A stretch of 61,596 nt of DNA, from the IMG/VR virus record IMGVR_UViG_3300021090_000021, positions 1 through 61,596 of that record. One strand, written 5' to 3'. Position 1 is the first letter of the stretch; each line of letters starts with the position of its first letter. The notes beneath the pieces were generated by a model. The model was given only the letters and a program-made list of their open reading frames with translations, ran no database searches and was not told the DNA's origin. Of this stretch, positions 1-45,870 are shown piece by piece. Both the position numbers and the translations under genes were made by a program. Source of the stretch: a virus. Taxonomy: Duplodnaviria > Caudoviricetes.

Positions 1-79
1 AACTAGTGGTCTGCGCGCCGGCAGGCGCAACACCGATGCCGAGCGCGACCAGCGCCGCGAGGAGAAGCCGTTTGATCAT
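1..79 (-). CDS. Secreted protein, 5' end only (runs off the window)
   Basis: ATG at 79 overlaps the upstream TGA (ATGA); translates to MIKRLLLAALVALGIGVAPAGA-QTTS, a typical Sec signal peptide. Confidence 0.7.
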   Translation of the reverse strand, partial: MIKRLLLAALVALGIGVAPAGAQTTS

Positions 80-3000
80 GCCGCCCGCCTATCGATCAGA
101 ACGTGATTTTCGTTGGAGCCGAAGCGCGGCCGCCAGCCCGGTGTTGGCGGCGTTCCTGATGGATCATTTGCATCCCACGCGCTCAGGTACATCGAGTAGG
201 CGTAATTCGGCATGATCTGGCCGGCAATTGTGTATTCCATCCCCGCGATGATCAGCGACGCTTCGATCGGCGGCTCCAGCAGCGGCCAGTTCAAGAAGCT
301 CGGCGTGATTACCTTCGCTGTCTCGCCTGGAAATTGAACCTCATCTGGATACTGACAAGTTTGGTTGGCCGGCCCGTTATCGAGATTGAAGAACGTCGAT
401 GTGGCGATCAAAGCAAAGTTGACGTAATAGAAGGTAGACACTCCACGCGGTCTCACCCCATCACCAAACGCGCCCCTGTTATTGTGAAGCTGCGCCTTGA
501 TCGGCCGAACTCCGATTCCCTCCGTTAGAGACACCCCAGCTTGGTTGGCACCAAGATTGTGAACCATGCCGCCCTGGAGAATTTCGAGCGGGAACGGGTC
601 GTAGACCCCATTGATCTCAAAACTTCGAACATGCAGATGCATCAACATCCATGCGTACTCGAAGATGGTTGTGCCCCACCCTCCAAAATTCGCAAACACT
701 GTTGCGTTGTCTTGCATATTCTCGTAGGCGTTCACGCCGGGCGTGAAGTTGCCGAAATAGTCAACCGGCTTGTAGTACGCCCACAATGACTGAAGACCGT
801 TGTACCACTGACCCTCAGAGCCGGTGACGAGAGCTTGCCCAGGGGCAGTCTGCGGGTTTCCATGTGAGAACTCCCACATCCCACGACCGATGTACTGACT
901 TAGATTTGCGCCGGATTGAAACGACGCAATGAAAGCCGTCTCGTAGGCCACCTCTCCTGTCAGACGGAACAAGTTGCCGGCGGCGAAGGAACGAAACCCA
1001 CGAACATTGATAGTATTGTCGAGAGCGTTCTGCGCGGTCGCGTATTGACCATCAGACCACCCCAAACCTGTCTGCAATCCAAGCACTGTCTTGTAATACG
1101 TATCGCGAGCACCGGCCGCGTTTGGTGCAGAAGTACGAATTGCTTCAGCCCAATCCCACATCAAGATCGCGGCGTTCTTGTATGCCAGCGCCTGCGCCGT
1201 CATACCTGCAATCGTAAGAACGCGTGAGCCCTTAGCGAGAGTCCCGGCGATGATGTAGTTCGAGGCATGATCGCCAGCGAACGTGAAATGTCTGCCGCGA
1301 TGTATCCAAGACGGCTCCCAAAAATTCTGCCCTACATCTCCGCCTTCGGGTTGAGATGACGCCATTTGACCGCCGATGGTGGCACCATCAAGGCCCATGG
1401 CCTGTCGATAGAAGTCGATCCCCCAAATTCCGGCTTGACCCAAGTCACCCAACGCATCGGTAGAGGCGTCCCAAATGCCGCCGATCAGCTCGCTGGCCTT
1501 AGGCAGGTTATGGTTCGTGTTGCGCGCGGCCGGACAGACCTCCCACACTTCCAGATAGTCATAGTATCCGAGCATGTGATGCAGCGCGAAGCAGTCCGAG
1601 TCCGCAGCATCCATGTGGCCGCCACGGACATCAATGCGCGTGGTCGTGATCCATGGCGAGTATCCACCTTGACCAGTCGGAGCGCCCTCGCTCGTGATGG
1701 CGAGATTCTGAGTTGAGAACGCTACGGGGAGATTGCTCCGATATTTTCTAACGCCATCCACGCCATCGTAGTATGTCGGTGCCGGGTATGTTGTTCCGAA
1801 ACGTCCATCAACCGTGCTGCATCGCTGATGATAGTCGCCGGCCGCGTGAACGGCAGCGGCGTCATTCCACACCTCATCGTCGAACCGCATCTCATCGCTG
1901 ACGCCAAGTCCTGGAATGTAGAGGCGATGCAGGCCGGCACCCGTAAAACCCGAATAGTCAAGATCGTAGACGTAGGTTCCCGCGCCGTTCATCTTATTCA
2001 ATTTGTTGATGAAGCCGCCGCCGCCAACCCATGGGGGCTGATCCGTGGCATCGATATCGGTGCCATCCGCATCTTGTAGAGCGATGATGTTGTCGTCGAT
2101 CCTGACGGCCAGATAGGTCCGCGTGTTAAATTGCGTCCTACCGGCGCCGTCGATGGCGCGCGGCTCTCTCGTTCCGCCGCCGGCCGGCGTCCATGTGTTC
2201 TGAAATCCAATCGCCTCCGGTCGGATCGTGTCGCCGGTTTGCAACCCATGGCCTGGAGCCGTCACGCGACATGGAACAACTGTCTTGTCAATATTGGTGA
2301 TCGCCACCCTGTTGGTGACACTGCTCATCGGATGGTGCGAGAGAATCGAGTAGTTATTGACAGTGTAGGTGCCACCATCGAACGTCGACCCATCCAGGTC
2401 GAACACGTGCTCGCTAATCTTGGTGATCTGCCACTGACCAAGAGCACTCGGAACGGTGGAGCCGAACTGCCCAAGCGTCTTGCGGATGAGAACGCGATCG
2501 CCAGTCACGAGCAATTTGTTTCCGCCGCTTGGCGTTGCAGTGCCAGGGAAGACGGCGGAATTCAGCGTAATGCGAATGGCGCCGGAGCCGTTGTCCGTAA
2601 TGGTAGAGATACTTCCGTTCGCGACGCCTCGGACATTGCTGGCGGTGATACGGCTGGGCTCGCAGTCGGTTGGAGATATCCGCAGCATCACATCGAACGT
2701 ATGAACGATGGTTCCGGCTTCATTGATCAGGTGCGCCTTGTTGGCTCCCACCAGCCCATATGTGGAATAATTGACCGCGCCTTCCTCGGAGCCATGGCCC
2801 GGAACCCAAATCGAGAGCTTGCCTTTCTTGTACACGTCGCTCGGCCGATGACCGTGCTGTGTCGTGTGGATCGCCTGCGATCTCGCTAGCTTGTCATTCC
2901 AGATAAATTCTTGCGTGGCACTCAAGCCGATATGCGAGAGATCAATCGAGTGCGTCGTCTGCGCAAGGTTTCCGCTCAGCTTGAGGAACAGGTAATGGCG

Positions 3001-4191
3001 CATCCGAGCCTGTTTTTCGAAAAGGTTCTGTGCCTGCTGATACGGCATCGACTTGCGATAGACCGCATCAACTGTTAGTCCTCCTATGGTCCCCCAGTTT
3101 GATAGAAGATCGGCGGCTGTTCGATCGATGTGATCGTAGCTATTCCCGCCGCTGAATTTCAGGTAGTTGTTATTGCGTCCGCAACGAAATGCCGTCTCGC
3201 TCGCGCTCGTGAACGGATTGGTGGCGGTCTCAAGGTTGCCCTGTCTCGTGATCGTCCCGCCAGAAACGTAAGCATTGACGAGCTGCGGAGCTCCCCGCAT
3301 GTGCCAGTTTGCAGAGGTCGAGAAGAACATCGAATTCAAGGGCAGGTAGTCGATGATGTCGATCTCGGTTGAGGACCACAGAGCACCCCAACAGGCGCCG
3401 TTGGCTTCTTCGGTCCCCACCACGCTACGGATGTTGCTGGTCTCTCCAGGCACGCCGTTGTTGGCGAGTTGGCTGCAAAATCCTCCGAACGTAAACGTCC
3501 CGCTGAATGTCGAGCCCGTGAGGTCGATGTGCGTACCGTCGACGATCGTGAACGACCACTGACCCTCTGCGGCCGTCACGCCTCCGGTGTTGTAGACGTA
3601 GATTTGACTGCCAGCATTCAGGTCGGCGGTGTCGTAGACCGTGAGCCTGATCGCGCCGGAGCCATTGTTAGCGCAGCCCTTGACCGCCAGCAGGACCGGG
3701 GATGTATAGCTCTTGGCGCTGGCAACAGTAACCCGCATGCCGCCCGAGGCATTGGCGACGATGCCGGTGATCGTCCCGCCAGACGGCGCTGTGGTGGCGA
3801 CCAGTGGATATTGGATTAACTCCTCATCCAAAAGCTCGATGCAGACGATATCCGGCGCCACCATGCCGATGTTGCGCAGGGTGATCGGCGCGGCATTGAC
3901 GGTGCCGGGCACGCCGGTTGCAATTGCCACCACGGCGGTGGCGGCGAACGCCTTCAGCAACATGCGGCGAGAGAGCCTCAACTCGCGGACGCCCTGTCGC
4001 TGCCAATGCTCATCCTGCTCTCGACGAACGGCGGTCGCATATCGAGCACCGATGGCCGGTGCCTGCAGGCGCTGCAGGAAGTAGGCAACAGGATTACGCT
4101 CAAAAAAATGGTAAAATTCGGCCGTCAGGATTTGACGCTGCCGCTCTAGGGACGAGCGCGTTGAGCGACTGAACTTCAGAGCCTTAGCCAT
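76..4191 (-). CDS. Large GH9-family glycoside hydrolase-like protein with twin-Arg signal and inserted phage tail-type (E1-FCCH-like) beta domains
   Basis: SRRMLLK plus hydrophobic stretch; CelD_N-like HTTQHGHRP..K and DYSGF..G.HRLYIPGLGVS; YHQRC; DVRGGHMDAAD (GH9 DAGD); LGANQAGVSLTEGIG; MEYTI (catalytic Glu region); AGGGGG RBS before ATG 4191. Confidence 0.75.
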   Translation of the reverse strand: MAKALKFSRSTRSSLERQRQILTAEFYHFFERNPVAYFLQRLQAPAIGARYATAVRREQDEHWQRQGVRELRLSRRMLLKAFAATAVVAIATGVPGTVNAAPITLRNIGMVAPDIVCIELLDEELIQYPLVATTAPSGGTITGIVANASGGMRVTVASAKSYTSPVLLAVKGCANNGSGAIRLTVYDTADLNAGSQIYVYNTGGVTAAEGQWSFTIVDGTHIDLTGSTFSGTFTFGGFCSQLANNGVPGETSNIRSVVGTEEANGACWGALWSSTEIDIIDYLPLNSMFFSTSANWHMRGAPQLVNAYVSGGTITRQGNLETATNPFTSASETAFRCGRNNNYLKFSGGNSYDHIDRTAADLLSNWGTIGGLTVDAVYRKSMPYQQAQNLFEKQARMRHYLFLKLSGNLAQTTHSIDLSHIGLSATQEFIWNDKLARSQAIHTTQHGHRPSDVYKKGKLSIWVPGHGSEEGAVNYSTYGLVGANKAHLINEAGTIVHTFDVMLRISPTDCEPSRITASNVRGVANGSISTITDNGSGAIRITLNSAVFPGTATPSGGNKLLVTGDRVLIRKTLGQFGSTVPSALGQWQITKISEHVFDLDGSTFDGGTYTVNNYSILSHHPMSSVTNRVAITNIDKTVVPCRVTAPGHGLQTGDTIRPEAIGFQNTWTPAGGGTREPRAIDGAGRTQFNTRTYLAVRIDDNIIALQDADGTDIDATDQPPWVGGGGFINKLNKMNGAGTYVYDLDYSGFTGAGLHRLYIPGLGVSDEMRFDDEVWNDAAAVHAAGDYHQRCSTVDGRFGTTYPAPTYYDGVDGVRKYRSNLPVAFSTQNLAITSEGAPTGQGGYSPWITTTRIDVRGGHMDAADSDCFALHHMLGYYDYLEVWEVCPAARNTNHNLPKASELIGGIWDASTDALGDLGQAGIWGIDFYRQAMGLDGATIGGQMASSQPEGGDVGQNFWEPSWIHRGRHFTFAGDHASNYIIAGTLAKGSRVLTIAGMTAQALAYKNAAILMWDWAEAIRTSAPNAAGARDTYYKTVLGLQTGLGWSDGQYATAQNALDNTINVRGFRSFAAGNLFRLTGEVAYETAFIASFQSGANLSQYIGRGMWEFSHGNPQTAPGQALVTGSEGQWYNGLQSLWAYYKPVDYFGNFTPGVNAYENMQDNATVFANFGGWGTTIFEYAWMLMHLHVRSFEINGVYDPFPLEILQGGMVHNLGANQAGVSLTEGIGVRPIKAQLHNNRGAFGDGVRPRGVSTFYYVNFALIATSTFFNLDNGPANQTCQYPDEVQFPGETAKVITPSFLNWPLLEPPIEASLIIAGMEYTIAGQIMPNYAYSMYLSAWDANDPSGTPPTPGWRPRFGSNENHVLIDRRAA

Positions 4192-4339
4192 ACGGATTAG
4201 ACCCCCTTGCCGACGAGCTGTGGTTGTGATTGTATTTTTTGATGTATCATTTCGTAGTCTACAGCCTGATCGGCGCCTGGCTCTTGCTGATCGCCATGCA
4301 ATTTTTGGTCGAGCCCGGCTTTGCACTGTTTGGTGTGAA

Positions 4340-4549
4340 ATGAGCGCAATTGATTGGGTTCGCTTCTGCTACGAGCGCGAGCGACCGGCCAACCGGTTCT
4401 ACTGGCACAAGTGGAATGTCTTCATCCCGGTGAGGACACGCGACGGATCGCTGACCATCGGATACGTCTGGCGTCGGCGCGTACCCCAGGGATGGGAGTA
4501 CACGCGCCGACCGATAATGGATGAGGAGAGAGCAGAATCATTTTGGTGA
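4340..4549 (+). CDS. Small Trp/Arg-rich hypothetical protein, antisense to the late operon (moron-like)
   Basis: 69-aa ORF filling the intergenic gap, preceded by an AT-rich stretch. Confidence 0.5.
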   Translation: MSAIDWVRFCYERERPANRFYWHKWNVFIPVRTRDGSLTIGYVWRRRVPQGWEYTRRPIMDEERAESFW

Positions 4550-5452
4550 TCAGAAGCCCCAAAATGTCTGTTGATTAGCCGTAACATCGTCCCGTTGAGT
4601 GGCATCCCACGCAGCATCCCAAGCCCCGCCCTCACGGAAGTCACCATCCAGGAACGAGCTGCCGAACTGGCCGATAAGCCAAAATGTATTTGGGTAGCCT
4701 GTACCGGCGTCTCCGGTGGTATCGGTGCCGTCGATGTTGATGACGGACGACGTGCTATTCATCACCCCTTGCAGAGCATGCCACGTGTTATCCGCTGCAG
4801 TTGCGAGCAAATCGGTGCCGCCATAGACACCCAATGTGTTGGCGCCGACACCGAACTCAGCGCCCCGTGATACGCCACCCCAGATGCCTTGCGTATTGGT
4901 GAAGTTGCCCGTGCGCTTGGCCACGGTGCTGAGGGTGACGGGCTGCGAGCCAGCCGCCAGCGTTGCCAAGTACGCTCCGCCTGTCGCACGAACAAAATGA
5001 ACGTGGCCGAGACCCGTGTTGATAAGTTGAGCTTGTAGTCCCGCAGTTGCTTGCCCTTGATTTCGTCCGTTTCCGGACTGATCGTAAAACGTGGTGACAA
5101 ATACGTTTGCTCCACCAGCCCAACTATCGAAAACAGACGCCAAATTGAGACTGCCACCCGCCGCAGACACGACGTCCATTTCGGCCTGATCGCTGTCGCG
5201 GCGAACGCGGATCAGGCTGGCGCCGATGGTGGCCTGCGTGTAGGCGCGAATGCCCCACCACACCACAGCTCCACTAACGACATCACCGGGGCCGACATAG
5301 CCCCCACCGCCACCGCCACCGGCCTTCTTTCCCGCGCCGGTCTGCATCAGTTGCGCGGCCGCCGGCCGGATGATCGCCGGTGCAGCCGGAATGAATAGTG
5401 TCGCGGCGGCACCGAGAAGAAACCGGCGCCGGGGGATCAGCAGCTTGGCCAT
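4550..5452 (-). CDS. Tat-signal protein with concanavalin A/LamG (arabinofuranosidase-B catalytic-like) domain
   Basis: N-terminal PRRRFLLGAAA...AAA; Gly linker; GPGDVVSGAVVWWGIRAY, IRVRRDSDQAEMD, FVTTFYDQSGNGRN motifs. Confidence 0.75.
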   Translation of the reverse strand: MAKLLIPRRRFLLGAAATLFIPAAPAIIRPAAAQLMQTGAGKKAGGGGGGGYVGPGDVVSGAVVWWGIRAYTQATIGASLIRVRRDSDQAEMDVVSAAGGSLNLASVFDSWAGGANVFVTTFYDQSGNGRNQGQATAGLQAQLINTGLGHVHFVRATGGAYLATLAAGSQPVTLSTVAKRTGNFTNTQGIWGGVSRGAEFGVGANTLGVYGGTDLLATAADNTWHALQGVMNSTSSVINIDGTDTTGDAGTGYPNTFWLIGQFGSSFLDGDFREGGAWDAAWDATQRDDVTANQQTFWGF

Positions 5453-5467
5453 CTTATTAAATCCTTC

Positions 5468-6307
5468 TCAGGGCGTCTTGAAGTAGTGAACCATCGCCTG
5501 CACCGGCTGGCCGGCGGAGGTGTTGATGCAGAGCGCATTGCTCGCGGCGGTGGCCAGCGACGCCGGCGGCACATTGGAATTCACCAGGCCGACCTGGGCG
5601 GTGAGCTGCCAAGCCGGGGTCAGATTGGTGGAGCCCGTCGCACAGGCCGTCCCGGTGCCGTAAATCAGTTTTACGTTCGCGGTGCCGCCGGCCAAGATCG
5701 ACAGACCGCAGACATAAATCGTCTTGCCTGAGGTCAGCGCGACAAGCTCCGTGGAGCCGTTGGTCGAGGCGTCATAAATCGCGGTGGCGTTGCAGGGTGA
5801 CTGCACCGACAGCACGTTGGTCGTGCTCGGCACCCCCGGCGTCCCGACCGCCACAATCCCGGAGGTGAGATTCTGGTTGGTGCGCTTTTGCAAGGCGATC
5901 AGCGAACAGCTGCCGTTGTCGCTGGCGCAAGCGGTATCGGCCTGGGCTCCAAGATCGACCACAGCGCCAGACGCGACCGCGCCGGATGCGAAAGCCCCGG
6001 ATGCATAGGCGCCGGACGCCACAGCACCCGAGGCGACGCCACCCGATGCTATGTTGACTTTTGCAGCCGTTGCATTCGCCCCCGTATTGGCAATGCTGAC
6101 CTGCAGCGGAACCGCTGCGGTTCCAACCTCAATATTGGATGAATTGATCAGAACCGTCGCCGGACACACCTTCGAGGTTGAGCAGACGAACGAAAACGCC
6201 GTCTGCACTACACCGCCGGAATCCTTGAATGTGTAGTCCGCCAACACATAGCCGCCGGCCAGCGAGATGATGCAAGCCACGACGATCGTTCGAAGCCAAT
6301 TTCGCAT
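5468..6307 (-). CDS. Secreted Cys-rich fibre/appendage-like protein with ASGAV pentapeptide repeats
   Basis: Signal peptide MRNWLRTIVVACIISLAGGYVLA; six ASGxx repeats; multiple Cys; N-module shared with 6343-6918. Confidence 0.7.
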   Translation of the reverse strand: MRNWLRTIVVACIISLAGGYVLADYTFKDSGGVVQTAFSFVCSTSKVCPATVLINSSNIEVGTAAVPLQVSIANTGANATAAKVNIASGGVASGAVASGAYASGAFASGAVASGAVVDLGAQADTACASDNGSCSLIALQKRTNQNLTSGIVAVGTPGVPSTTNVLSVQSPCNATAIYDASTNGSTELVALTSGKTIYVCGLSILAGGTANVKLIYGTGTACATGSTNLTPAWQLTAQVGLVNSNVPPASLATAASNALCINTSAGQPVQAMVHYFKTP

Positions 6308-6342
6308 GATGATGATCCTTGATAACGGCCAACGGGCCGGGT

Positions 6343-6918
6343 TCACTTGAAGCTGTAGGAGATGGTGACGCCGGGAGCGGCACTCGTATTGTCGTTATCG
6401 TTGATGCCGCCGGTGAGACACATGCCGATCCCATTGGGATAGCTTTCGCCATAGGGACCGAGCGGAACCGCAACGCCATCGGCACCGGTCGACGCCGGCA
6501 CCGCATAGGTCGCAACCACTGTGCCAGACGCACATGCCGGCGCCGACGCGGTGTCGTAGAATTTCAGGAAATAGACGGTCGCCGTGGTGTTGACCGCCAC
6601 AATCTTGCAGAGCAGACCGGCCGATGTCTTGATGCTGGTCGAGTTGGTCGACGCCGCGCTCAAGAGCTTGTTGGGCGTACACCCGCCACTGGTCGGCGCG
6701 GCAAGCGTCATAGCGCCGCCCACCTGCAGCGGCAATGCCGTGATCCCAACCTCGGCCGACGACGAATTGACCAAGGTTACAGCGGGCTGCACCTTGCCGC
6801 CGGCCGTGAATGAAAAGAAATTGGCGAAACCCGGCAACGCATAGTCGCCGAGCGCGTAGCCGCCGAAAAACGTCAGCAGCAATGCCGTGGGAAGAATGAA
6901 CCGCAGTGATCGGATCAT
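6343..6918 (-). CDS. Secreted beta-rich appendage-like protein (paralogue)
   Basis: Signal peptide; SAASTNSTSIK...YFLKFYD.ASAP.C domain shared with 7128-7586. Confidence 0.75.
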   Translation of the reverse strand: MIRSLRFILPTALLLTFFGGYALGDYALPGFANFFSFTAGGKVQPAVTLVNSSSAEVGITALPLQVGGAMTLAAPTSGGCTPNKLLSAASTNSTSIKTSAGLLCKIVAVNTTATVYFLKFYDTASAPACASGTVVATYAVPASTGADGVAVPLGPYGESYPNGIGMCLTGGINDNDNTSAAPGVTISYSFK

Positions 6919-6921
6919 GGC

Positions 6922-7131
6922 TCAGAGTCCTGGTAAGAGGGGGATATAGTAGGTGTAGCACCCGTCCACGTCGGACAGATCGAGCGACGGGTCGGCGCAT
7001 GCCGCCGGTGGCGTGCCGGGCGCGGACGACCCGACACCCTTGAGCAGCATGTTGGCCCAAGCCGCGGCCGCGCCGAGCAGGACAATCGCCATGCACAGAA
7101 CGGCCAGAAAGTCGCGGACGCGGGCGCTCAC
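6922..7131 (-). CDS. Small secreted protein with LLKGVG motif and a Cys pair
   Basis: GTG start overlapping the upstream stop (GTGA); signal peptide ending AWA. Confidence 0.6.
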   Translation of the reverse strand: MSARVRDFLAVLCMAIVLLGAAAAWANMLLKGVGSSAPGTPPAACADPSLDLSDVDGCYTYYIPLLPGL

Positions 7132-7586
7132 TTGTAGCCACCATTGCAGAACACGCCGGTGGCGGCCGCGCTGGCGTCGTTGTCGGCCGAGCCGCCGGTG
7201 ATGCAGGCAGCGATGCCGGTCGTGAACTCGCGACCCACGGCTCCGAAGATGATCGAGAACCCATTGCCGTCCGTGCTGGCCGGAATCGGATAGGGGCCGG
7301 CGTAGACGGCGTCGGTGTTGCAGGTCGGCGCCGACGCCTTGTTGTAGAACTTGAGATAATATTTCGTCGCCGTCTGGTTCACGCAGGTGATGTCGTAGAC
7401 GTTGCCCGGCGTGGCCTTGATGCTGGTGGCATTGGTGGTGGCCGCACTCACGATGCGAAACGGCGTCGACCCACTGGCCAGCTCGCTCGGCCAGATCGAG
7501 ACGCGCGCTTGCTGCGCCAGCACGGGAAGGCCGAGCGACAGAAAGATCAGAGCAGCGACGATCGCCGCGGTGCGGAGCCACGTCAT
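7128..7586 (-). CDS. Secreted beta-rich appendage-like protein (paralogue)
   Basis: Signal peptide ending VLA-QQ; SAATTNATSIK...YYLKFYN.ASAP.C; 4 Cys. Confidence 0.75.
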   Translation of the reverse strand: MTWLRTAAIVAALIFLSLGLPVLAQQARVSIWPSELASGSTPFRIVSAATTNATSIKATPGNVYDITCVNQTATKYYLKFYNKASAPTCNTDAVYAGPYPIPASTDGNGFSIIFGAVGREFTTGIAACITGGSADNDASAAATGVFCNGGYK

Positions 7587-7810
7587 GGCAGTCTCCCGGT
7601 TCGAAGTTGTTAGGAAGTATGCGGCCGCGGCCGCGAAAGTCCGTCGCGCGCCACCATGCAGCGACGCTTGGCCGAAACGATGACCACGAGCAGCAGGGCG
7701 ACCTCGATGAGGACATCGATCCCACGCGGCGTCTTGTAATTGCGGCCTCTACTGAATAGGGCCGCCCGCTTTCACGGACGGCCCCCTCAAAATCTGCGCG
7801 CGATCGAACT

Positions 7811-8263
7811 TTACTTCACTTGGAAGAACAGATCCCCTGTCTGCACCGTCAGCGGGACAAACCAGCTCGTGACACCGCAATTGGGGAAACGCAGCGTCGC
7901 TCGATATGACGTCAGTCCGTGCGGCAATGTCTCGCTGAGCGCAAAAGGATTGTCTGATACCTGCTCACCCATCCTGGTCGGGATTCTTAGATCGAATTTC
8001 AGGTATGGACGAACAACGAGATCAGAGCCGACGATTTCCCGCGAGACAACAGCTTCGCAAGCGCGGTACCAATGAGTTTTCCAGCGCACGACAACGCGAT
8101 CGCCTGGCACCGGTGCACTTGGCAGTATCTCGCCACTGATATATTCGAGTGGATCTCTACGATCGTACACCACGGCGCCGAACACCAAGCCGGCCAATAA
8201 TGGCAGAACAATCATGTTCTCCAACGACCAGGTCAAAGCGCGGCGCGGGGTGATCGAGATCAT
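7811..8263 (-). CDS. Membrane-anchored protein of the lysis region
   Basis: N-terminal TM helix, soluble domain with a Cys pair. Confidence 0.6.
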   Translation of the reverse strand: MISITPRRALTWSLENMIVLPLLAGLVFGAVVYDRRDPLEYISGEILPSAPVPGDRVVVRWKTHWYRACEAVVSREIVGSDLVVRPYLKFDLRIPTRMGEQVSDNPFALSETLPHGLTSYRATLRFPNCGVTSWFVPLTVQTGDLFFQVK

Positions 8264-8266
8264 GGA

Positions 8267-8470
8267 TCAACCCTTTCCGATGAACGTCAGAATATTCTGC
8301 TTGAAGGCCACCGCGCCCGCCGCTGCGCCGCCGAGGACGATTCCGCACTTCCACAGCAACCGGCCCATCCAGCGCGAGCGCTCATAGGTTTCGAGCATCT
8401 CCAGAAGCTCGGACCCATGCTTCTTGAGCTCGGCCAGAACCTCATCGTCGGTCAGGTTCTTGTTAGCCAT
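8267..8470 (-). CDS. Small membrane protein, holin-like
   Basis: 67 aa, one C-terminal TM helix, in the lysis cluster. Confidence 0.5.
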   Translation of the reverse strand: MANKNLTDDEVLAELKKHGSELLEMLETYERSRWMGRLLWKCGIVLGGAAAGAVAFKQNILTFIGKG

Positions 8471-8609
8471 GCTGTTCCGCCGTGGTAGGCCGGAACCGCC
8501 TCCGGAGGCATCTTCTGTGGGAGACTTCCGCAGCCGTCATGGAGGCTTACCCCTTCATGGTGGTCAGGGCCGGTCGGTCGTTGCAAGCTTCCGACTGGCC
8601 CGCTTGTGT

Positions 8610-8864
8610 TCAAGCCCGCGGCGGATTTGCCGGCAACGACTCGGGTGTGACGGTGCTCGTGAACCAGGTCTTGAGCACCACGGTCAGCACGCTTTGAGCG
8701 AGCGTCGTCACCGCCAAGACCTTGACCTGCGTCGCATCGTCGAGGCCGAGCGCGTTGGTCGTGACCAGCGTCATCACGGCGGCGCCGACCTGGGTCCAGT
8801 TGATCTTGCTCAGGAACGCAGATTTGGTCTGAACGCGTGTCGTGAGAGCTTGGTCAATCGACAT
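8610..8864 (-). CDS. Holin-like two-TM protein
   Basis: KSAFLSKINWTQV plus two hydrophobic helices; GGAG RBS. Confidence 0.6.
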   Translation of the reverse strand: MSIDQALTTRVQTKSAFLSKINWTQVGAAVMTLVTTNALGLDDATQVKVLAVTTLAQSVLTVVLKTWFTSTVTPESLPANPPRA

Positions 8865-8893
8865 GGTCTCGTCTCCGTTGTTGGTTATGGATG

Positions 8894-9265
8894 CTAATGT
8901 CGAAACAGGAACACCAAGGCGGTGCCCAGCACCACGATGACGCCGAGCACCCACACAAGAGGATGCACCCGCTGCCCGGCCGGCATTGGCATCGGCTCGA
9001 GTGGTGCCGGCGCCGGTTGCGTATCGGGGCGCGCCTCGCTCAGATATTTTCCGTTGACATAGCCGTGCTGGCCGGTACGGCGCACTTTGACATGCAGCCA
9101 GGGCTGCGTCGCATCGGAGCGTGACAGCACCTCAACGACATCACCCTTCGGCAAGGAATCGAACACCTGACCGGAGATGCTCGGCGAGCTCCGCAGGTTG
9201 AGGCCATCGGAGATGACCGCTCTGATCTCGGGCATGGCAAATCCTTCGGTTGTGGATGCGTTCAC
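8894..9265 (-). CDS. Bacterial SH3 (SH3b) domain protein with C-terminal TM helix
   Basis: LNLRSSPS...L.KG..V.VL...WLHV...GYVNGKYL. Confidence 0.8.
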   Translation of the reverse strand: MNASTTEGFAMPEIRAVISDGLNLRSSPSISGQVFDSLPKGDVVEVLSRSDATQPWLHVKVRRTGQHGYVNGKYLSEARPDTQPAPAPLEPMPMPAGQRVHPLVWVLGVIVVLGTALVFLFRH

Positions 9266-9786
9266 CGTTTTAGGAAACAGGCTTGCGCCTGCCGTTTCTG
9301 TTTCGCGGTCAGCCCGCGGCGCAGGCCTTCAGCCTCCAGATACTCCTGCGAATAAATGACCGCGGCGGTGCGGACCTCCAAGCAGGAATACGGAAGGTCG
9401 GGACCGTCATCGGCCGCGCGCGCGGGTGCCTTGCTTTGCAGCTTAGCCTTGCCCTGCTGTTTCACCTTCGGCTTGGCCTTATCCGTCGGCTTCACAATCG
9501 GCTCGGCCTTCACTTCAGGCGTTGGCGTCACCACCTCTGGCACGACCGGGAGTGGCGCGATCGCAGCGGGCGGCAGCTGCGGTACGAGCTCGTCACGGTT
9601 CGCCGGTGGCGACGGCAACGGCCTTGGTATGGACACCGGCACCGGCACTACGGGCGTTCGGCGGTGCGGCCAAAGCCATTGCCTCACCCTCTCGATTGCC
9701 CGCTCGATCCTGATGTCGCTCGCCGCATCGGCGGCTGAGCCAACGGCCATCAACAGCAGCACCGCGACAAACGCGGCACGTCTCAT
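9262..9786 (-). CDS. Secreted Pro-rich protein with C-terminal Cys pair
   Basis: Signal peptide MRRAAFVAVLLLMAVGSAADA; start/stop overlaps on both sides. Confidence 0.6.
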   Translation of the reverse strand: MRRAAFVAVLLLMAVGSAADAASDIRIERAIERVRQWLWPHRRTPVVPVPVSIPRPLPSPPANRDELVPQLPPAAIAPLPVVPEVVTPTPEVKAEPIVKPTDKAKPKVKQQGKAKLQSKAPARAADDGPDLPYSCLEVRTAAVIYSQEYLEAEGLRRGLTAKQKRQAQACFLKR

Positions 9787-11261
9787 TTCTTCGCGGCGCC
9801 GGCGAACGCGCCAAGGAGTTTCAGGCCGATGTTCAAGGCCGCGCCCCAGCCGCCGGTCATCCCCACCAGGCCGGTGAGAGCGGGCACCAGCGTCGCGATC
9901 GTCCCGGTCTGTGTCGGAGCATCGCCAATGCCGAACGGCGTGCCGACGACGCCGAAGGCCTGCAGCACCGTGCTGATCGCCAGGCCGAAGGCACCGATCT
10001 GAACGCCTGGGTTCTGCACGGACGGCGTGACGGGCGCGGGAGCGACGGGAACCACGGGCGCTGGAATGACGGGAGGCGCAGGAGATGCAGGTTCGGGCTG
10101 GACCAACACCGAGGTCGGGACACTGCCGGGGCGCCGCATAAGGCCGAAGAGAATCTCGACGATTTGCGCCACGATCGCGATCGCGTTCGGATCGAGGCCT
10201 CGGCCGGCCAAGGCTCCGGCTGGCGTCACGGGCTTTATCGGGTCGGCCATCTGATTTCGCTCCATAATGTTGGTGATGATTGGCACAAGCACTTCGAGCA
10301 GCTCGCGCAGGACCTGCAACGTCTCAAGGATGCACTCGATCGGGGTGTCGATCTGAGGATCGAGCACGGGATCGATCTGATCGGCGACGAACTCCCAATC
10401 GACCAATCCCTTCCCAGGCAGCCCGATCGCTGCTGCTGCGGCGGGTGTCAGGTCAATGCCGGCGCCATTGGTCGAGCGGCCGAAGCGGTCAATTCCGGCC
10501 TCGGCCTGCGGCCGGGTTCCGGTCTCCCAATAGGGGTCGCTGATGTTCCACGGCCCAAGATCGACGATGTCGCAGACGACCGACTTGCCGGAATACGTCA
10601 CGCGAACCTGCGGGCGCTTACCCTTGAAGGCATTCGGCAACGCGACGCCGTATCGGTTCTGCCATCCTGATGCGACGTCCGGGTATTTGACGCTCTGCTC
10701 GTCGCCGACACCACCGAACACAGTGGCGGTGATCGAGAGGAAACGTTTCTTCGGCGCAGCAGCTGCGGCAAAAAACGCGTTCGTTCCATGCCAGCGGATC
10801 GCGACACACTCGCTCGCCAGATAGCGGCTCTCGCGGACCTGGTCGGACTGGTTTCCGCCAAGGCAGACATAGTGCTCGCCCTCGGTGCGCAGGTAGAGCG
10901 TGACGTGATGCGGAAACACCAGCACGGCGCCCGGTACCGGCTCGGAGAGCGGCACACCCCATCCGCGCCACGCGTCGGCCCATAGGAAGCGCGTCGTATC
11001 GATCGAGCCAAACGGCGGACGGATGCCGTTGCGAGCCATCGCGATCGCGACCGTGAGGCCGCACCATGCGATTTCGTCGCCGGTGAACAGCGCGCAATAG
11101 GCGCTCATCTCCGGAAAGCAGGCCGCGATCTCTCGAGGCCACGCCATGATGATCGGGTTGTCGGCGTCGACTGTGTTTTCTGCGGTGCCCTGGAGCACGC
11201 GCATCGTGGCGAGCCATGGCGGAACGGATGCGGCGCCGGCTTGCTCAACGAGCATGATCAC
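9783..11261 (-). CDS. Endolysin-like multidomain protein: TIGR02594/CHAP-NlpC-like peptidase + RlpA-like DPBB domain + C-terminal membrane segment
   Basis: PPWL..M, DEIAWCG (Cys), HHVTLY (His), LGGNQSDQV; second domain VVCDIVDLGPW...GIDLTPAAA..IG. Confidence 0.75.
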   Translation of the reverse strand: MIMLVEQAGAASVPPWLATMRVLQGTAENTVDADNPIIMAWPREIAACFPEMSAYCALFTGDEIAWCGLTVAIAMARNGIRPPFGSIDTTRFLWADAWRGWGVPLSEPVPGAVLVFPHHVTLYLRTEGEHYVCLGGNQSDQVRESRYLASECVAIRWHGTNAFFAAAAAPKKRFLSITATVFGGVGDEQSVKYPDVASGWQNRYGVALPNAFKGKRPQVRVTYSGKSVVCDIVDLGPWNISDPYWETGTRPQAEAGIDRFGRSTNGAGIDLTPAAAAAIGLPGKGLVDWEFVADQIDPVLDPQIDTPIECILETLQVLRELLEVLVPIITNIMERNQMADPIKPVTPAGALAGRGLDPNAIAIVAQIVEILFGLMRRPGSVPTSVLVQPEPASPAPPVIPAPVVPVAPAPVTPSVQNPGVQIGAFGLAISTVLQAFGVVGTPFGIGDAPTQTGTIATLVPALTGLVGMTGGWGAALNIGLKLLGAFAGAAKK

Positions 11262-11434
11262 GCCCCTGTTTCACGCACCGGAAAGAATAGCTGCCGGGAC
11301 GCTTGCGCCACTTCTCCTTGCTCGACTCAGCAACCGCCACGGCGGAACATGCGCGCGCGGTCGCGAATGGTTCGCGCGGCGCCAGATCCGGATGGCTCAA
11401 GGCCAAGCAGAACGCGGCGGACATGCACTTGATC

Positions 11435-11818
11435 TCAAGAAGCCACATGCGCGCCGTTACCGTTCTGCTTGTGGCCTGCGGCCGCAGCACCGCGATCAAG
11501 CCGCTGGCGCTCGGCACTGAATTGTGCATGCAGCGCCGCCGCCTGCGCGGTGAATGCCTCGATGCTTTCCGACAACCCAACGGCCTCGCCACGCACCGCA
11601 TCAGCGAGCTGCACTGCGTCGGCATAGATCGCGTTTGCCTGGTTCACCAGCGCCGCGGCGGCGCCAACAATCTGATCAGCGGCGGCAAGGCAACACTTCA
11701 CAACAGCCTCGTACGCGAGCGCGCCGATCGGCGGCGTGATCAGAATCACAGCGTGGCCCGGTCCAGCCTCCACCGTCGGCAGACCCAAAACGTCGTCATC
11801 GTCCGGTTCTTGCTGCAT
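11435..11818 (-). CDS. Hypothetical coiled-coil protein
   Basis: ORF in operon context. Confidence 0.5.
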   Translation of the reverse strand: MQQEPDDDDVLGLPTVEAGPGHAVILITPPIGALAYEAVVKCCLAAADQIVGAAAALVNQANAIYADAVQLADAVRGEAVGLSESIEAFTAQAAALHAQFSAERQRLDRGAAAAGHKQNGNGAHVAS

Positions 11819-12191
11819 GAATCAGCTCCTCGAATTGTTGCAGGGGAATGATCACCGGCGCGAACGCGGTGTGCGCCGACGCGAACCGAAACACGCCATG
11901 CACATAATCGAAGTCGGGCGCCGCCGCGCGGCCGGAAGTCAGCCGCGCGGCAGTGCCGTTGTCCGCCGCCGGCCGTGCAACCGGTAAGGGCGGACGCCCC
12001 CGCGTTGGCGCCACAGCCATGGAGGAGCGGTGTACGCGAGCCTTGATGTGTTTTGAGGGACTGGCCGCCACGCCAGACCTGACGAACTCACGTGAAGCTT
12101 GAGTGCCCTTGACGCCCCTGGCCGCGGCCGAGACCGGCGCCGCCACGCTCCACGCCAGCACCATGGCGAGGACGGCGATTACAAGATGCAT
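11796..12191 (-). CDS. Secreted hypothetical protein
   Basis: Signal peptide MHLVIAVLAMVLAWSVAAPVSA; start overlaps the upstream stop. Confidence 0.5.
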   Translation of the reverse strand: MHLVIAVLAMVLAWSVAAPVSAAARGVKGTQASREFVRSGVAASPSKHIKARVHRSSMAVAPTRGRPPLPVARPAADNGTAARLTSGRAAAPDFDYVHGVFRFASAHTAFAPVIIPLQQFEELIHAARTGR

Positions 12192-13501
12192 CAGGTGATG
12201 CGATGGCCGTATAGGCAGGCTGTGCCGCTCGCAATATTGCCGGTATTGAATCGCAAACGCAGACTTGTCACAGCCGCGGACCCATCATCCCAAAATCCCC
12301 CACCAGTCATCGTCGAATACGAACCACCCCCGGTCACATAAGTCGCCAAGACAGTGATGCTCGTTCTGGCACCGGTGGCAACAGCGACAACTCCACCAAA
12401 CCCGCCTGCGCGGGTCGCTGCATTCGCAACCTGGATATTCGAACCAACACCGGAAAGCGCGATGTCTGTGGTGATTGAGTTGGTCGTCGACCCGACTCCG
12501 ACATTACCGCCGCCGCCGATTCCGAGACCACCCCATAGATAGGAGGTTGTTTGATAGGTTGGCGTTCCACCAGTTCCGACCCGAATGTAGAGCGCCGCAT
12601 CATTTGTCGCCGGAGTGATCGCGCTCAATTCGAGTGAATAGTTCGTATAGGTCGCACTGATGAGATTATCAAAATCGAGTGTCGATGAGCTCGATGCTGT
12701 TCTACACGCCAATAGCACTTTGCTCGCGCCATCCGATCCCACCGGTGCACGGAATGCAGGCGTCGCAGCAGAGCCAGAGGCAGGCCCAGCAAAGAAGGTA
12801 TTTGCGCTCTGGTTGTCGAACGTGATCGCGCAGGTGCCACTCGTCGTGATCGTGCAGCCCGATAGGTCAAAGACCGACGTCGGCAGCGTAAGGGTAACGC
12901 TCGTGACCGTCCCCGTACCGACACCGGCGGCCGCTGGGCTCGCCACTGCGCGCCAGCGCGTCGAAACACCGTCATACCAAAGCGTGAATGAGCGGCCTGC
13001 ACCTACCGTGACGTCGCCACCAAGCGCAAACCGATTGGCGGCCGTCGAGGCGGCGTCCTCATCCTCGAGCACCAGATCCTGCGCGCCGATATTCAGGGCC
13101 GTGATCAGCCGCCCGGGCGCCTGGCCACAGGACAGACCGGTGATACTGCGGCTCGCGTCGGTCGACAAACGTAGCGCGATGACGGCCGTACAGCCGCCGC
13201 CGGTGTAGTCGTTCTGGTTTGATGTGATCTGCGACGGCGAAAGCGTTCCCGTCGCCAGAACGGCGCCTGTGAACGTCCCGTAGACCTCGCAATCCCACGT
13301 GCCAGCCTGCCGCGTGACGACATCCCCATTCGTCGCGCAGAAGGCCCGATCGAACATCGCCGTCAGCGTCGCCCACTGTGGCAGCGCCGTGACTGCACCC
13401 GGGTTGCCCGAAACGCGACCTGATGGCGCCTGGCCGCCCTGGCCGAACGCGGCCGCGGCCGCCAGCACAAGGGCAAGAAGCGCGAGGGTGGATTTCCGCA
13501 T
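12191..13501 (-). CDS. Tail fibre-like protein carrying a Sec signal peptide
   Basis: MRKSTLALLALVLAAAAAFG; GTVTSVTL...ITTSGT and QSANTFFAGPASGSAATPAFR fibre motifs; C-terminal ASSSSTLDF...GNIASGTACLYG domain. Confidence 0.75.
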   Translation of the reverse strand: MRKSTLALLALVLAAAAAFGQGGQAPSGRVSGNPGAVTALPQWATLTAMFDRAFCATNGDVVTRQAGTWDCEVYGTFTGAVLATGTLSPSQITSNQNDYTGGGCTAVIALRLSTDASRSITGLSCGQAPGRLITALNIGAQDLVLEDEDAASTAANRFALGGDVTVGAGRSFTLWYDGVSTRWRAVASPAAAGVGTGTVTSVTLTLPTSVFDLSGCTITTSGTCAITFDNQSANTFFAGPASGSAATPAFRAPVGSDGASKVLLACRTASSSSTLDFDNLISATYTNYSLELSAITPATNDAALYIRVGTGGTPTYQTTSYLWGGLGIGGGGNVGVGSTTNSITTDIALSGVGSNIQVANAATRAGGFGGVVAVATGARTSITVLATYVTGGGSYSTMTGGGFWDDGSAAVTSLRLRFNTGNIASGTACLYGHRIT

Positions 13502-13509
13502 GATCTTGC

Positions 13510-14088
13510 TCACCTCAGAAGATAGCCCGTGCCGTACGGCACGAAATTGTACCAACCGTATTTAGCGCTACCGACGATGCTCGATTGGTCCGTGATGAGT
13601 CCACCACCATCGACGCTGAAGGTCGTCGCGAAGCTGTCCCACACGCCGCTGGCGTCGATGATTGTCACCGGACCGCGTTTCACCGCGCCCGGAGGCAGCA
13701 CACAGTTGCGAGTGGCCGGCGACGTCGGCGCGAGCTTCACGATCTGATCGAAATCCTGGATCGCGATATCGCCGGACGTTGTTTCGGTGCGCTCCAGAAA
13801 TTCCGCGGTGTCGGCTTCGCCCAAGAGACCGATCGCGACATGTCGCCAGAGTCGCTCGAATCCGCTCTTATATGCGCGGATCTGATAGGCGCCACCCGAG
13901 ATATAGAATCGCGCGAAGCCCTCGACATCGACCGAAAATGGATTGCCAAGAGGTGTCGTGCCGTCACGATCTTCATAGATCGTCGCCAGTGGTTGACCGA
14001 CGATCTCGCGTTTCACCTCGATAGTAACGCCGGCGAGAACTTTACCAGCGGCATCCGTGATCGTGGCTTGCCATACCGCATAGGCCAT
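13510..14088 (-). CDS. Tail fibre adaptor/head-binding-like protein
   Basis: LATIYEDRDGTTPLGNPF..D.EG...FY motif typical of fibre/tailspike N-termini. Confidence 0.65.
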   Translation of the reverse strand: MAYAVWQATITDAAGKVLAGVTIEVKREIVGQPLATIYEDRDGTTPLGNPFSVDVEGFARFYISGGAYQIRAYKSGFERLWRHVAIGLLGEADTAEFLERTETTSGDIAIQDFDQIVKLAPTSPATRNCVLPPGAVKRGPVTIIDASGVWDSFATTFSVDGGGLITDQSSIVGSAKYGWYNFVPYGTGYLLR

Positions 14089-16436: not shown

Positions 16437-17894
16437 TCAGGCCGCTGATCGCCCTAAACCGCCAACCTGCATCTCGATGCCGATCAGATTGTTCGGCGAT
16501 TCAGGCACCGGGCGTGGATCGTTGGTCATCCATTCGAACCCAGTCTCGAATGGATAGCTTCCAGGACGCCATGCGAAGAAGAACGGCTGCGCTTTGCTCG
16601 CTGCAATGAATGGATCGAGGTTTTCCCGGTACCAAGCTGGCGTCAGATTGTTGAGGCTGATCACCCCCGTTCGCGCCTCGCTCAGCACGATGCGCCCGAG
16701 GAATTCACCGGACTCGCTGCGGTTATTCACGACGCGCGCGGTTCGACCGTAGTTGATCGGTGTGTGGCCGCGATAGATCTTGCGCTCGCAGACCGTTAGG
16801 CGGCCCGCATACATCACCGCCGCGCGCGGCGATGCGTTCCCATCCTGCATGCGCAGGCGCACCGATGACATCGCGGTCGGGACGAACCTGAACAGAACCG
16901 GATCGTCGTTGGCAAGCAGCGTCTCGCCGACAAGCTCCTGCCATGATCCGCTGATGAAACCCTCGACCGAAACCGGGATCTGGCCGCTACCGAGGTTGTG
17001 CCGCGCGAACGCGATATAATCGATCGTGTCGTCGATCGCGGCGGTGAGGTGTTGATCTCCGTTGAAGTACACGAGCGTCGGCGCCGTGAATGCCTCCGTC
17101 CAGCGCGCAATGCCCTTCGATACCCGGATCTCGTCGAGCCATCCGTTGTAATTGTTGTTCGCCGTATTGTTGCCGTCCGCGCCGATCACCGGACGGTTGG
17201 TACCATTGAGATAGCTGGTCGCATCGACGTAGCTGCTGCCCTGCTGCACACCATCGAGGAAGAGCTTTGTCACCCCTTCAAAACGCGCCAGCGCGACGTG
17301 GTGCCAGGCGCCGGTCGCGAGTGTCGTTGCCCCGGTGATGCGCGCGGCCCCATTCACGATCAGCTGCAGAACATTTCCGCTCGTGACAGAAAGCGTGACG
17401 TAGGCCCCGGATGCCGTACCGCTGGGACGTGAATCGTAAAGCCTGCGTTCCGCCCCGACTGCATTCAGCCGGAATTGAAGGTCGATCGTGAAGTCGCCGA
17501 GCCCGAACGCAAAGTCAGCACCACCGTTGACGGTGAGAAAGTCGCCGGTTCCGTCGAGGAGGAGCGAGGCTCCTCCGAACTTGCTCTGTGCGGTATCGAC
17601 CTGCGCGTTTCCATTGGGCGTGACGGCATGGGGATCAAGCGACAGGTCGGTGAACGTCGTGGAGGCATCCGCCCCATCGCAATGAAGCAACAGCTTGGTG
17701 AATGCATCGAGGCCGCGTCCCCGCCATTGCAGGAACGTCGATGGGTTGGCCAAATTCGTGACGGGATAGTCCGCCTCGGCGGTGTCGGCTGAGATGTTGG
17801 TTGCCGTCACCAGGTTATGCCAGCCGATCACCGGATGATCCGGGCCCGGCGAACCGGTCGGCGAGAGGACAAGATTTTCGGATATGACAATCAT
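16437..17894 (-). CDS. Distal tail-like protein with inserted LamG/concanavalin A domain
   Basis: TKLLLHCDG...KFGGASL..DG..D, DFTID, WHHVA..R, GWLDEIRVSKGIARW. Confidence 0.75.
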   Translation of the reverse strand: MIVISENLVLSPTGSPGPDHPVIGWHNLVTATNISADTAEADYPVTNLANPSTFLQWRGRGLDAFTKLLLHCDGADASTTFTDLSLDPHAVTPNGNAQVDTAQSKFGGASLLLDGTGDFLTVNGGADFAFGLGDFTIDLQFRLNAVGAERRLYDSRPSGTASGAYVTLSVTSGNVLQLIVNGAARITGATTLATGAWHHVALARFEGVTKLFLDGVQQGSSYVDATSYLNGTNRPVIGADGNNTANNNYNGWLDEIRVSKGIARWTEAFTAPTLVYFNGDQHLTAAIDDTIDYIAFARHNLGSGQIPVSVEGFISGSWQELVGETLLANDDPVLFRFVPTAMSSVRLRMQDGNASPRAAVMYAGRLTVCERKIYRGHTPINYGRTARVVNNRSESGEFLGRIVLSEARTGVISLNNLTPAWYRENLDPFIAASKAQPFFFAWRPGSYPFETGFEWMTNDPRPVPESPNNLIGIEMQVGGLGRSAA

Positions 17895-28806: not shown

Positions 28807-29033
28807 TCCGGCACCAGATAGCGCGTGCGACCGCGCGAAGACGACAGTCGCTTCACTTGCGTGTCCCAGAACGTGATCTGTTTCAGAATCTGCTCAGCAT
28901 CGGCACGCGTCAGCGATCGCTGCCCATTACCGGTGTCGATCGTGTACGACTGGCTCTTCGCGACCGCGGCGGAGGCCGCTATCCAAGCGTCAAGTTGAGT
29001 CTGTGCCGCTGCAAGAGTAATTCCAGCCATCAA
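28803..29033 (-). CDS. Head completion protein (gpW-like)
   Basis: QSYTI...RSLTRAD; lies between terminase and portal. Confidence 0.8.
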   Translation of the reverse strand: MMAGITLAAAQTQLDAWIAASAAVAKSQSYTIDTGNGQRSLTRADAEQILKQITFWDTQVKRLSSSRGRTRYLVPE

Positions 29034-35792: not shown

Positions 35793-36103
35793 CAGGCGAC
35801 CTCCCTCTCCTCAAGCGCCTGCGCACGGACGGTGACGGCGAGCGGGCCGCATAGCTCGCCCGCACAGTCGAGCCACTCGGCGATCTGCTGAAGGGCTATT
35901 GCGCGTGCAATGCCGATACACGTCGCCGGCCGCAGCCGCATCGGCCCGCCATCTGTTGGGAGGTGACATTGGACGAAGAAGGCGACCTTCGTGCCGAAGT
36001 TATGGGGATTGATATGCGCCACGCGTAGGGTGCCGAGCATCACGTGCTCGCGCCCCGACGGAAGGCGATTGAAGGTGACGGGAGGAGACGTGATGGTGTT
36101 CAT
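35792..36103 (-). CDS. Hypothetical protein
   Basis: Overlapping start/stop on both sides. Confidence 0.5.
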   Translation of the reverse strand: MNTITSPPVTFNRLPSGREHVMLGTLRVAHINPHNFGTKVAFFVQCHLPTDGGPMRLRPATCIGIARAIALQQIAEWLDCAGELCGPLAVTVRAQALEEREVA

Positions 36104-45868: not shown

Positions 45869-45870
45869 CA

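Follow-up and report, generated by a model that had tools for sequence, protein, structure and literature searches.

Signal-bearing fibre-type, jelly-roll and glycosidase-like proteins at the downstream end of the late genes of a temperate siphophage: candidates for export to the host envelope

The usual view of tailed phages is that the particle is assembled entirely in the cytoplasm, decoration proteins and fibres being the parts known to join finished particles, and the lambda-type morons Lom and Bor are single small outer-membrane proteins that are expressed in lysogens. The window analyzed here, the whole 61,596 nucleotides of one incomplete IMG/VR virus record (IMGVR_UViG_3300021090_000021), encodes in positions 1-13501 a run of proteins that begin with export signals: a tail-fibre-type protein, members of a lysis region, and an accessory cassette of jelly-roll proteins, a LamG-like protein and a divergent relative of glycoside hydrolase family 9 (GH9) (Table 1). 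Like Lom and Bor the cassette products are apparently exported, and their genes close the late region on the side of the attachment site, apart from the core structural genes; the cassette differs in being a multi-gene set with an enzyme and lectin-like domains. The secreted carbohydrate-active enzymes of prophages offer a second comparison: in its available part PMC13507307 reports signal peptides on 3261 of 64,678 prophage carbohydrate enzymes (5%), with GH9 among the families, and the likeness consists in a glycoside hydrolase with a signal peptide in a temperate phage. The window enzyme differs from those enzymes, as far as that text describes them, in being targeted to twin-arginine translocation (Tat), in being encoded in a conserved cassette alongside exported lectin-like proteins that are related to virion proteins, and in being too divergent for the Pfam GH9 model.

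Other described systems resemble single components. The cement proteins of Helicobacter phage KHP40, cyanophage Pam1 and Ralstonia phage GP4 share with the window's jelly-roll proteins a small sandwich of ~110 residues, and relatives of the window proteins adjoin capsid or portal genes; however, the cement proteins lack a signal peptide, the window copies carry a signal together with an export-linked cysteine pair and lie outside the head module, and the structural scores are middling. Adhesive fibres of the Bd2133 type in Bdellovibrio and Ena endospore appendages of Bacillus consist of phage-like or jelly-roll modules and are put together outside the cytoplasm (fold matches of Z 6.2 at 19% identity for Bd2133 and Z 7.0 for Ena, whose pili are disulfide-linked according to the entry title), but both are cellular rather than phage-encoded. 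The signal-less fibres of Nitrobacteraceae prophages contain the same module (residues 79-186) and are likewise encoded after the host-specificity protein; a conserved signal-less N-terminus stands where the window protein has a signal peptide in at least 22 of the 47 bacterial-genome loci with this module (40-54% identity), and 7 of the 47 start with a signal peptide. The lysis proteins and the secreted glycosidase are the ordinary part of the window, and the exported fibre and exported virion-type jelly-roll proteins the unusual part. The statement of the sequence-only reading, an earlier account made from the letters of the window, that no such system is described stands for the latter, as no description of exported tail fibres or exported jelly-roll proteins was found in the literature searched, the supplementary tables of PMC13507307 and PMC10127595 lying outside its coverage; it falls for the enzyme, secreted prophage carbohydrate enzymes being known from the available text of the former.

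The best reading of the locus, adopted with moderate confidence, is that its products are exported and bind and cut glycans, with the host envelope as their place of action. The Sec substrates would cross the inner membrane unfolded and then be locked by periplasmic disulfides, while the two Tat substrates would fold in the cytoplasm before export; the lectin-like modules would bind a beta-glycan of the host surface or periplasm (exopolysaccharide, lipopolysaccharide or glucan), which the GH9-like enzyme would cut. As a result, receptor-bearing polysaccharide might be cleared or masked around the time of release, or the surface of the lysogen remodelled. We infer actual export, the glycan target, the timing, and action on the cell rather than on the particle; the glycan direction comes from the GH9 homology, the ConA/LamG-like match, a jelly-roll fold like that of lectins and carbohydrate-binding modules, and carbohydrate-related domains among exported neighbours. 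Of the two fates originally offered for the signal-bearing proteins, docking on virions during or after lysis or a role as secreted or surface factors, the second fits 76-7586 better.

Export signals were assessed by a heuristic of our own rather than by SignalP or TatP, requiring a best 10-residue hydropathy of >=2.2 within residues 1-35 and, ahead of that stretch, a net charge that is not negative; the gene list comprised 61 of the 79 open reading frames of a greedy caller, 18 short or antisense-looking frames being dropped and six starts reset by hand. Signal-like N-termini occur on 9 of the 14 genes in 1-13501 versus 2 of 47 elsewhere in the window (Fisher p = 5e-6). The Sec-like ones combine a positive n-region, a hydrophobic core and a small-x-small site, and by this heuristic are present where they had been claimed on 12191-13501, 9262-9786 (which begins with MRRAAFVAVLLLMAVGSAADAAS), 7128-7586, 6922-7131, 6343-6918 (score 2.13, slightly below the cut-off), 5468-6307 and 1-79. 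The N-terminus of 11796-12191 is hydrophobic from residue 3 without a positive n-region, and so may be either a signal or a membrane anchor. The consensus for a Tat signal is an S/T-R-R-x-F-L-K-like motif ahead of a hydrophobic stretch that ends in a small-x-small site, and both twin-arginine motifs of the window match this consensus well (SRRMLLK with AFAATAVVAIATGVPGTVNA, PRRRFLLG with AAATLFIPAAPAIIRPAAA). PRRRFLLG stands at residues 7-14 of 4550-5452 and is N-terminal, as proposed; SRRMLLK is likewise present in 76-4191, but its N-terminal placement depends on the start codon, since ATG 4191 would put it 72 residues into the protein and TTG 3981 would put it 4 residues in. The 70 upstream codons are conserved in frame in a second phage, L144, so that either start may be the true one. 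All of these genes are on the minus strand, and their starts have ribosome-binding sites and agree with upstream stops. The signals are also retained in homologues, a check that the sequence-only reading had set for itself: those of the fibre-type protein in ppBdUSDA122-1, a cultured phage of Bradyrhizobium, as well as in syntenic Bradyrhizobium prophages, those of the GH9-like enzyme in its relatives, and those of the jelly-roll proteins in 49 of the 120 relatives listed, the other 71 being signal-less.

That the signal-bearing proteins are really exported is likely from their N-termini and composition, and the higher cysteine content of signal-bearing members in three families argues that export is genuine rather than an artefact of start codons. 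Among jelly-roll relatives the pair Cys89/Cys128 is found in 49 of 49 signal-bearing versus 2 of 71 signal-less proteins, both exceptions being short and probably truncated calls. The LamG family has a median of 2.22 cysteines per 100 residues in signal-bearing and 0.41 in signal-less members (41 versus 108 proteins, p = 6e-12), and the fibre family 1.15 versus 0.45 (16 versus 30, p = 0.005); at fibre positions 216/224 five signal-bearing homologues have a cysteine pair, which is absent from every signal-less homologue that aligns at these positions. This is the pattern expected if the proteins fold with disulfides outside the cytoplasm, as the sequence-only reading had suggested, and the cysteine motifs to which it pointed are found in 5468-6307 (CSTSKVC and CASDNGSC) and in 12191-13501 (CTITTSGTC). 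The absence of cysteine from 4550-5452 is to be expected of a Tat substrate, which folds before export.

The fibre-type protein 12191-13501 appears to be read with the tail genes: a gap of 9 nt separates its ATG at 13501, preceded by a GAGG-type ribosome site, from 13510-14088, and at the other end the stop codon overlaps the start of the following gene. It has both marks by which a tail fibre is recognized, a position in the tail module and domains common to tail fibres. The module at residues 79-186 has 46 hits among phage proteins and recurs in proteins that five phage records annotate as tail fibre, and the phage depolymerase sandwich PF25692 matches it in homologues P0123 (4.9e-7) and P0157 (1e-6) above the Pfam cut-off and in P0122 (9.7e-4, 20 bits) below it. 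The AlphaFold model is poor (mean predicted local distance difference test score, pLDDT, 52.7) and confident only at about 84-188, a part that resembles 6o38 (a chaperone-substrate complex entry) and phage tailspike and baseplate domains at middling scores (Z 6.1-7.7). As a single query the protein found 0 relatives in viral contigs, and a sequence search of the PDB gave 0 hits at E <= 1. A signal-like N-terminus is found in 16 of 46 fibre homologues. In the two genome loci with a gene like 13510-14088 upstream, L043 and, in Bradyrhizobium sp. PUT101, L045, the protein in the fibre slot starts with a clear signal; in ppBdUSDA122-1 the annotated tail fibre protein, with 865 residues and 18 cysteines, starts with MKLQRLLGAIGAVVMSVSTALAAEQ, and the 483-residue protein preceding it also starts with a hydrophobic signal-like stretch. 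Some homologues (P0133, P0134) carry after the signal the N-terminal domain that opens signal-less fibres (P0131). The relatives lie mostly in genomes of Afipia, Bradyrhizobium, Tardiphaga and Rhodopseudomonas, a distribution that points to the lineage of the host.

Between the fibre-type gene and the cassette lies a lysis region, in which targeting to the membrane or periplasm is the norm, so that three of the signals listed by the sequence-only reading (11796-12191, 9262-9786 and their neighbours) are expected there. Gene order in this region is the same in L144, and comparable lysis sets follow the fibre gene in prophage L045 and in ppBdUSDA122-1; the wall hydrolase as a single query found 0 relatives in genome contigs. 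The GC-rich hairpin after the last lysis-region gene is poor in U-tract and followed by ~165 nt without a gene, and likely marks the end of the late transcript. Neither the idea of a cluster of fibre-like proteins nor that of a single appendage system survives: only 12191-13501 is fibre-like, 76-4191 is an enzyme, and the region consists of three things, a fibre-type protein, a lysis region and an accessory cassette.

The cassette is accessory and mobile, being outside the core operon, variably present and of differing base composition. It lies beyond the hairpin, toward the contig end with the integrase and the tRNA-like remnant, and the G+C fraction of 1-4000 is 0.565-0.585 against ~0.62. 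L144 has the same cassette, including a 69-residue signal-bearing gene at the position matching 6922-7131, and whereas its adjoining lysis region is 47-50% identical, two cassette proteins are 83% (5468-6307) and 98% identical. The related PUT101 prophage L045 has lysis genes followed by host-type genes and no cassette; a tRNA between the two is deduced there from a reading frame only. Among 39 dereplicated resolved loci of IMG/VR, 30 have a signal-bearing jelly-roll gene, and in 18 of these 30 a signal-bearing protein of at least 200 residues is encoded within three genes downstream. Pfam searches of 34 signal-bearing neighbours gave Ig-like, Fn3-associated, GDSL esterase, chitobiase C-terminal and O-antigen-ligase domains, most neighbours being without a match. 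Separately, two contigs with a signal-bearing jelly-roll gene also encode large multi-pass membrane proteins (L003 3856-5046, L005 8616-9971) that look like O-antigen ligase or Wzy-type proteins; one such neighbour in another locus matched PF04932.

The three jelly-roll proteins are paralogues, as judged from repeats common to their DNA and protein (repeat families D3 and D6) and from their alignment. They match no Pfam or PHROG family and have 312 relatives in the protein collection. The AlphaFold model of 7128-7586 (pLDDT 88) shows a detached N-terminal helix (residues 3-17) followed by a jelly-roll beta-sandwich. Foldseek found nothing in the PDB at E <= 0.001 and 42 matches at that threshold among predicted viral structures. 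Besides Ena and the Bdellovibrio fibre tip, the best structural matches of the model, all middling, are nucleoplasmin (Z 7.8), the cement proteins of KHP40 (7.2), Pam1 (5.9) and GP4 (5.5), and PBSX XepA (6.9); many lectin-type sandwiches score Z 5-6, and the fold also resembles that of carbohydrate-binding modules. Signal-less relatives are also found as C-terminal domains, in proteins of 124-753 residues whose N-terminus is conserved, a build that by its domain order is that of receptor-binding proteins. The window's own three copies follow the lysis region and do not adjoin capsid genes. A 170-residue protein with a hydrophobic N-terminus was noticed directly after the major capsid gene on three podovirus-like contigs (L006 8647-9159, L007 9108-9620, L003 18355-18879); it gives a weak match to an Rz-like spanin PHROG (E = 3.6e-4) and is a further membrane-targeted protein inside a head module.

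The LamG-like protein belongs to a family with 6515 hits, and 42 of the best 150 have a signal-like N-terminus. Residues 640-1301 of the GH9-like protein match 35 proteins, most with PF00759 (E = 1e-29 to 1e-53); the family profile matches the solved GH9 enzymes 5u2o (2.6e-25), 3x17, 6dht and 1clc (range to 2.8e-11), and the Atlas assignment of 76-4191 is GH9 at 0.91. Searches of the PDB with the GH9-like and LamG-like sequences singly gave 0 hits at E <= 1. N-termini of the 35 GH9-like relatives were checked, and most of the 31 that look complete have a Tat or Sec signal before the conserved mature start, an RR motif being present in 9 of the 35. The family is common in bacterial chromosomes, e.g. 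on contigs of 2.1 and 3.65 Mb. Between the two Tat genes a plus-strand open reading frame (4220-4549) has a translation that would make a plausible small protein.

A number of observations weigh against the envelope reading. The fibre-type protein lies in the fibre slot, translationally packed with the tail genes, rather than in a cargo position, and in ppBdUSDA122-1, whose annotation lists no fibre lacking a signal, both proteins that follow the main tail protein bear signals. On contig L007 the signal-bearing jelly-roll genes are flanked by the portal and major capsid genes (confirmed by PHROG); from a reading of open reading frames, they apparently also lie between portal and capsid in L003 and L006, and signal-less relatives adjoin minor tail, major head and portal genes. 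On the jelly-roll FastTree the signal changes four times and the cysteine pair twice, and an independent-pairs test is without power; with so few changes of state on the domain tree the link between cysteine pair and signal is weaker than it appears. The 1416-residue frame of the enzyme matches no Pfam family at E <= 0.01, PF00759 included, and it is therefore called GH9-like, a divergent relative rather than a certified member; at the motif that is [MH]DAGD in 27 of 35 relatives and aligns to GGWHDAGD of 5u2o it has MDAAD, both Asp residues, which we take to be the catalytic pair of GH9, being kept. Upstream of 7586 on the minus strand a sigma-70 consensus scan, which does not cover the variety of alphaproteobacterial promoters, gave no promoter-like site, and no RNA run is listed with positions 1-9000.

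The placement of signals among head and tail genes would be accounted for if these were virion add-ons finished in the periplasm, i.e. if fibre-type proteins, and perhaps jelly-roll decorations, were exported, disulfide-bonded and joined to cytoplasmically built particles only once holin lesions had merged the two compartments, or after lysis. The fibre-slot position and tight coupling to tail genes speak for this, together with a signal kept in syntenic prophages and in the particle-forming phage ppBdUSDA122-1, the fibre N-terminal domain behind the signal of P0133 and P0134, the signal-bearing jelly-roll genes inside head modules, and the resemblance of the fold to cement proteins. However, no precedent was found in the literature searched, the window's jelly-roll genes are grouped with enzymes behind the hairpin rather than with head genes, and the structural Z scores are within the range of unrelated sandwiches; the available text of the mBio paper on these phages contains nothing on tail fibres or proteomics. 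Assembly of this kind is a lesser possibility, though one to be taken seriously, and its more specific form, that in some temperate phages whose hosts are Bradyrhizobium-type bacteria a Sec-exported, disulfide-locked fibre and jelly-roll decorations would attach when the holin opens the inner membrane, is doubtful.

The cassette might instead be cargo of benefit to the lysogen, expressed from the prophage for carbon acquisition, for biofilm remodelling, or for excluding other phages by trimming or masking their receptor. Its position beyond the late-operon hairpin, its absence from L045 and the frequency of the GH9-like family in bacterial chromosomes agree with such a role, and the available part of PMC13507307 describes prophage carbohydrate enzymes as extensions of host metabolism; cargo would nevertheless leave the signals in the fibre slot and on head-module jelly-roll proteins unexplained, and it is further opposed by the lack of a promoter-like site and of a listed RNA run noted above, so that we consider it unlikely. 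It is very improbable that the signals are an artefact of mis-called starts, or that host genes flanking a prophage were wrongly included in the viral record. The record is admittedly an incomplete contig and the signal test crude, and the Tat motif of 76-4191 is not N-terminal if ATG 4191 is used, but the starts are backed by ribosome-binding sites and upstream stops and the signals recur in homologues from many independent contigs. The idea of host flanking sequence was rejected: the sole attachment-like remnant is that at 59988-60052, with no second copy in 1-14000, ARAGORN detects no tRNA in the window, and L144 has the same cassette beside its lysis genes. Action of exported glycan-binding and glycan-cutting proteins on the envelope is retained as the best reading.

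A fibre-slot protein here keeps its signal peptide in related prophages and in a cultured Bradyrhizobium phage, and virion-type jelly-roll and LamG-like modules come in two forms, one without a signal and the other exported and rich in cysteine. Either phages routinely recycle the glycan-binding modules of particles as exported proteins that act on the envelope, or some parts of the particle mature in the periplasm; the latter would mean soil phages with oxidatively cross-linked receptor-binding parts, and it is this second reading, with virion add-ons maturing in the periplasm, that would give the finding its importance. The question bears on the annotation of receptor-binding proteins and on phage-borne carbohydrate enzymes in soil viromes, and both readings can be tested in the harmless laboratory pair of ppBdUSDA122-1 and soybean Bradyrhizobium (B. 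diazoefficiens USDA 122), in which the exported fibre-slot protein is conserved.

The gene content of the window is that of a temperate siphophage, with an S49 protease, a Mu gpT-like capsid protein and a distal tail protein bearing LamG in addition to the genes of Table 1; the counterpart of 14090-16432 in a prophage of Bradyrhizobium sp. PUT101 is 54.6% identical. As the late genes are all on the minus strand, 1-13501 is their downstream end. A megablast search of 1-14000 against cultured phages gave no match. The left end of the record is an assembly break, since a contig of the one public DNA run that contains this sequence, probably the run of the source sample, continues ~616 nt past position 1; a circular junction was rejected, because the ends of the window do not join in frame and the public contig passes position 1. 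At the other end, 61400-61596 holds the C-terminal piece of a minus-strand gene whose frame does not match that of the signal-bearing start at 1-79, presumably the end of a secreted protein with calcium-binding repeats (RTX-type). The tRNA-like stretch after the integrase gene is, from its sequence and position, probably the phage attachment site.

Table 1. Features of the window (lengths in amino acids; an empty cell means that no entry is given)
Feature	Positions	Strand	Properties and evidence
Further gene, first 26 codons	1-79	-	Sec-like signal MIKRLLLAALVALGIGVAPAGAQ; cut by contig end; translation
Accessory cassette	76-7586	-	Three jelly-roll paralogues, 69-residue protein, LamG-like Tat protein, GH9-like Tat glycosidase
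GH9-like glycoside hydrolase	76-4191	-	Tat signal SRRMLLK; start ATG 4191 or TTG 3981; frame 76-4326
LamG/ConA-like protein	4550-5452	-	300; Tat signal PRRRFLLG; no Cys; partial PF09206, E = 8e-7; partial phrog_10356 'virion structural protein'
Jelly-roll paralogue 3	5468-6307	-	279; Sec signal; Ala/Ser/Gly repeats; 9 Cys
Jelly-roll paralogue 2	6343-6918	-	191; Sec-like signal
69-residue protein	6922-7131	-	Signal-like N-terminus; 3 Cys
Jelly-roll paralogue 1	7128-7586	-	152; Sec signal MTWLRTAAIVAALIFLSLGLPVLAQQ; Cys89/Cys128 pair
GC-rich 12-bp hairpin	7752-7790	-	Right after last lysis-region gene; minimum free energy -29.7 kcal/mol, centroid -27.8, z = -2.98 vs shuffles
Lysis region	7811-12191	-	Wall hydrolase, SH3 protein, small membrane proteins, signal-bearing 9262-9786 and 11796-12191
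Small membrane proteins	7811-8263, 8267-8470, 8610-8864	-	
SH3 protein	8894-9235	-	C-terminal membrane segment; SH3_3, E = 1.9e-13
Wall hydrolase	9783-11255	-	490; phrog_1259 tail lysozyme domain, E = 1.4e-15; weak DPBB match
Tail-fibre-type protein	12191-13501	-	436; cleavable-looking Sec signal MRKSTLALLALVLAAAAAFGQGG; 8 Cys
Protein without signal	13510-14088	-	192; always upstream of signal-bearing fibre gene in relatives (L043, L045)
Central tail fibre / host specificity protein	14090-16432	-	780; no signal; marks tail module; phrog_11439, E = 6.6e-138
Tape measure	17891-19948		
Portal	26999-28624		
Lambda-type terminase	29030-30958		
Integrase	58816-59988		
Degenerate tRNA-like stretch	59988-60052		Directly after integrase gene; T-arm intact, CCA end; Rfam tRNA 19.9 bits, below threshold

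Some further features of the window stand apart from the exported proteins. Beyond the tRNA-like stretch two small plus-strand genes (60618-61248), the second with helix-turn-helix domains (PF13560, PF01381), are presumably a toxin-antitoxin-like pair, the label of the first being our assumption from similar N-termini. Three large genes of DNA methyltransferase type, with N6_N4_Mtase, MT-A70 and C-5 cytosine methylase domains, lie at 36100-40277 and 48857-51403. A diversity-generating retroelement at 44537-47237 consists of a reverse transcriptase (PF00078, 44537-45874) and an Mtd-like protein (46314-47237), with the template repeat at 45736-45868 and the variable repeat at 46328-46460 in the C-terminus of the Mtd-like protein; the repeats are 91% identical, 10 of their 12 differences fall at template adenines, and the surroundings are early and replication genes rather than the tail module.

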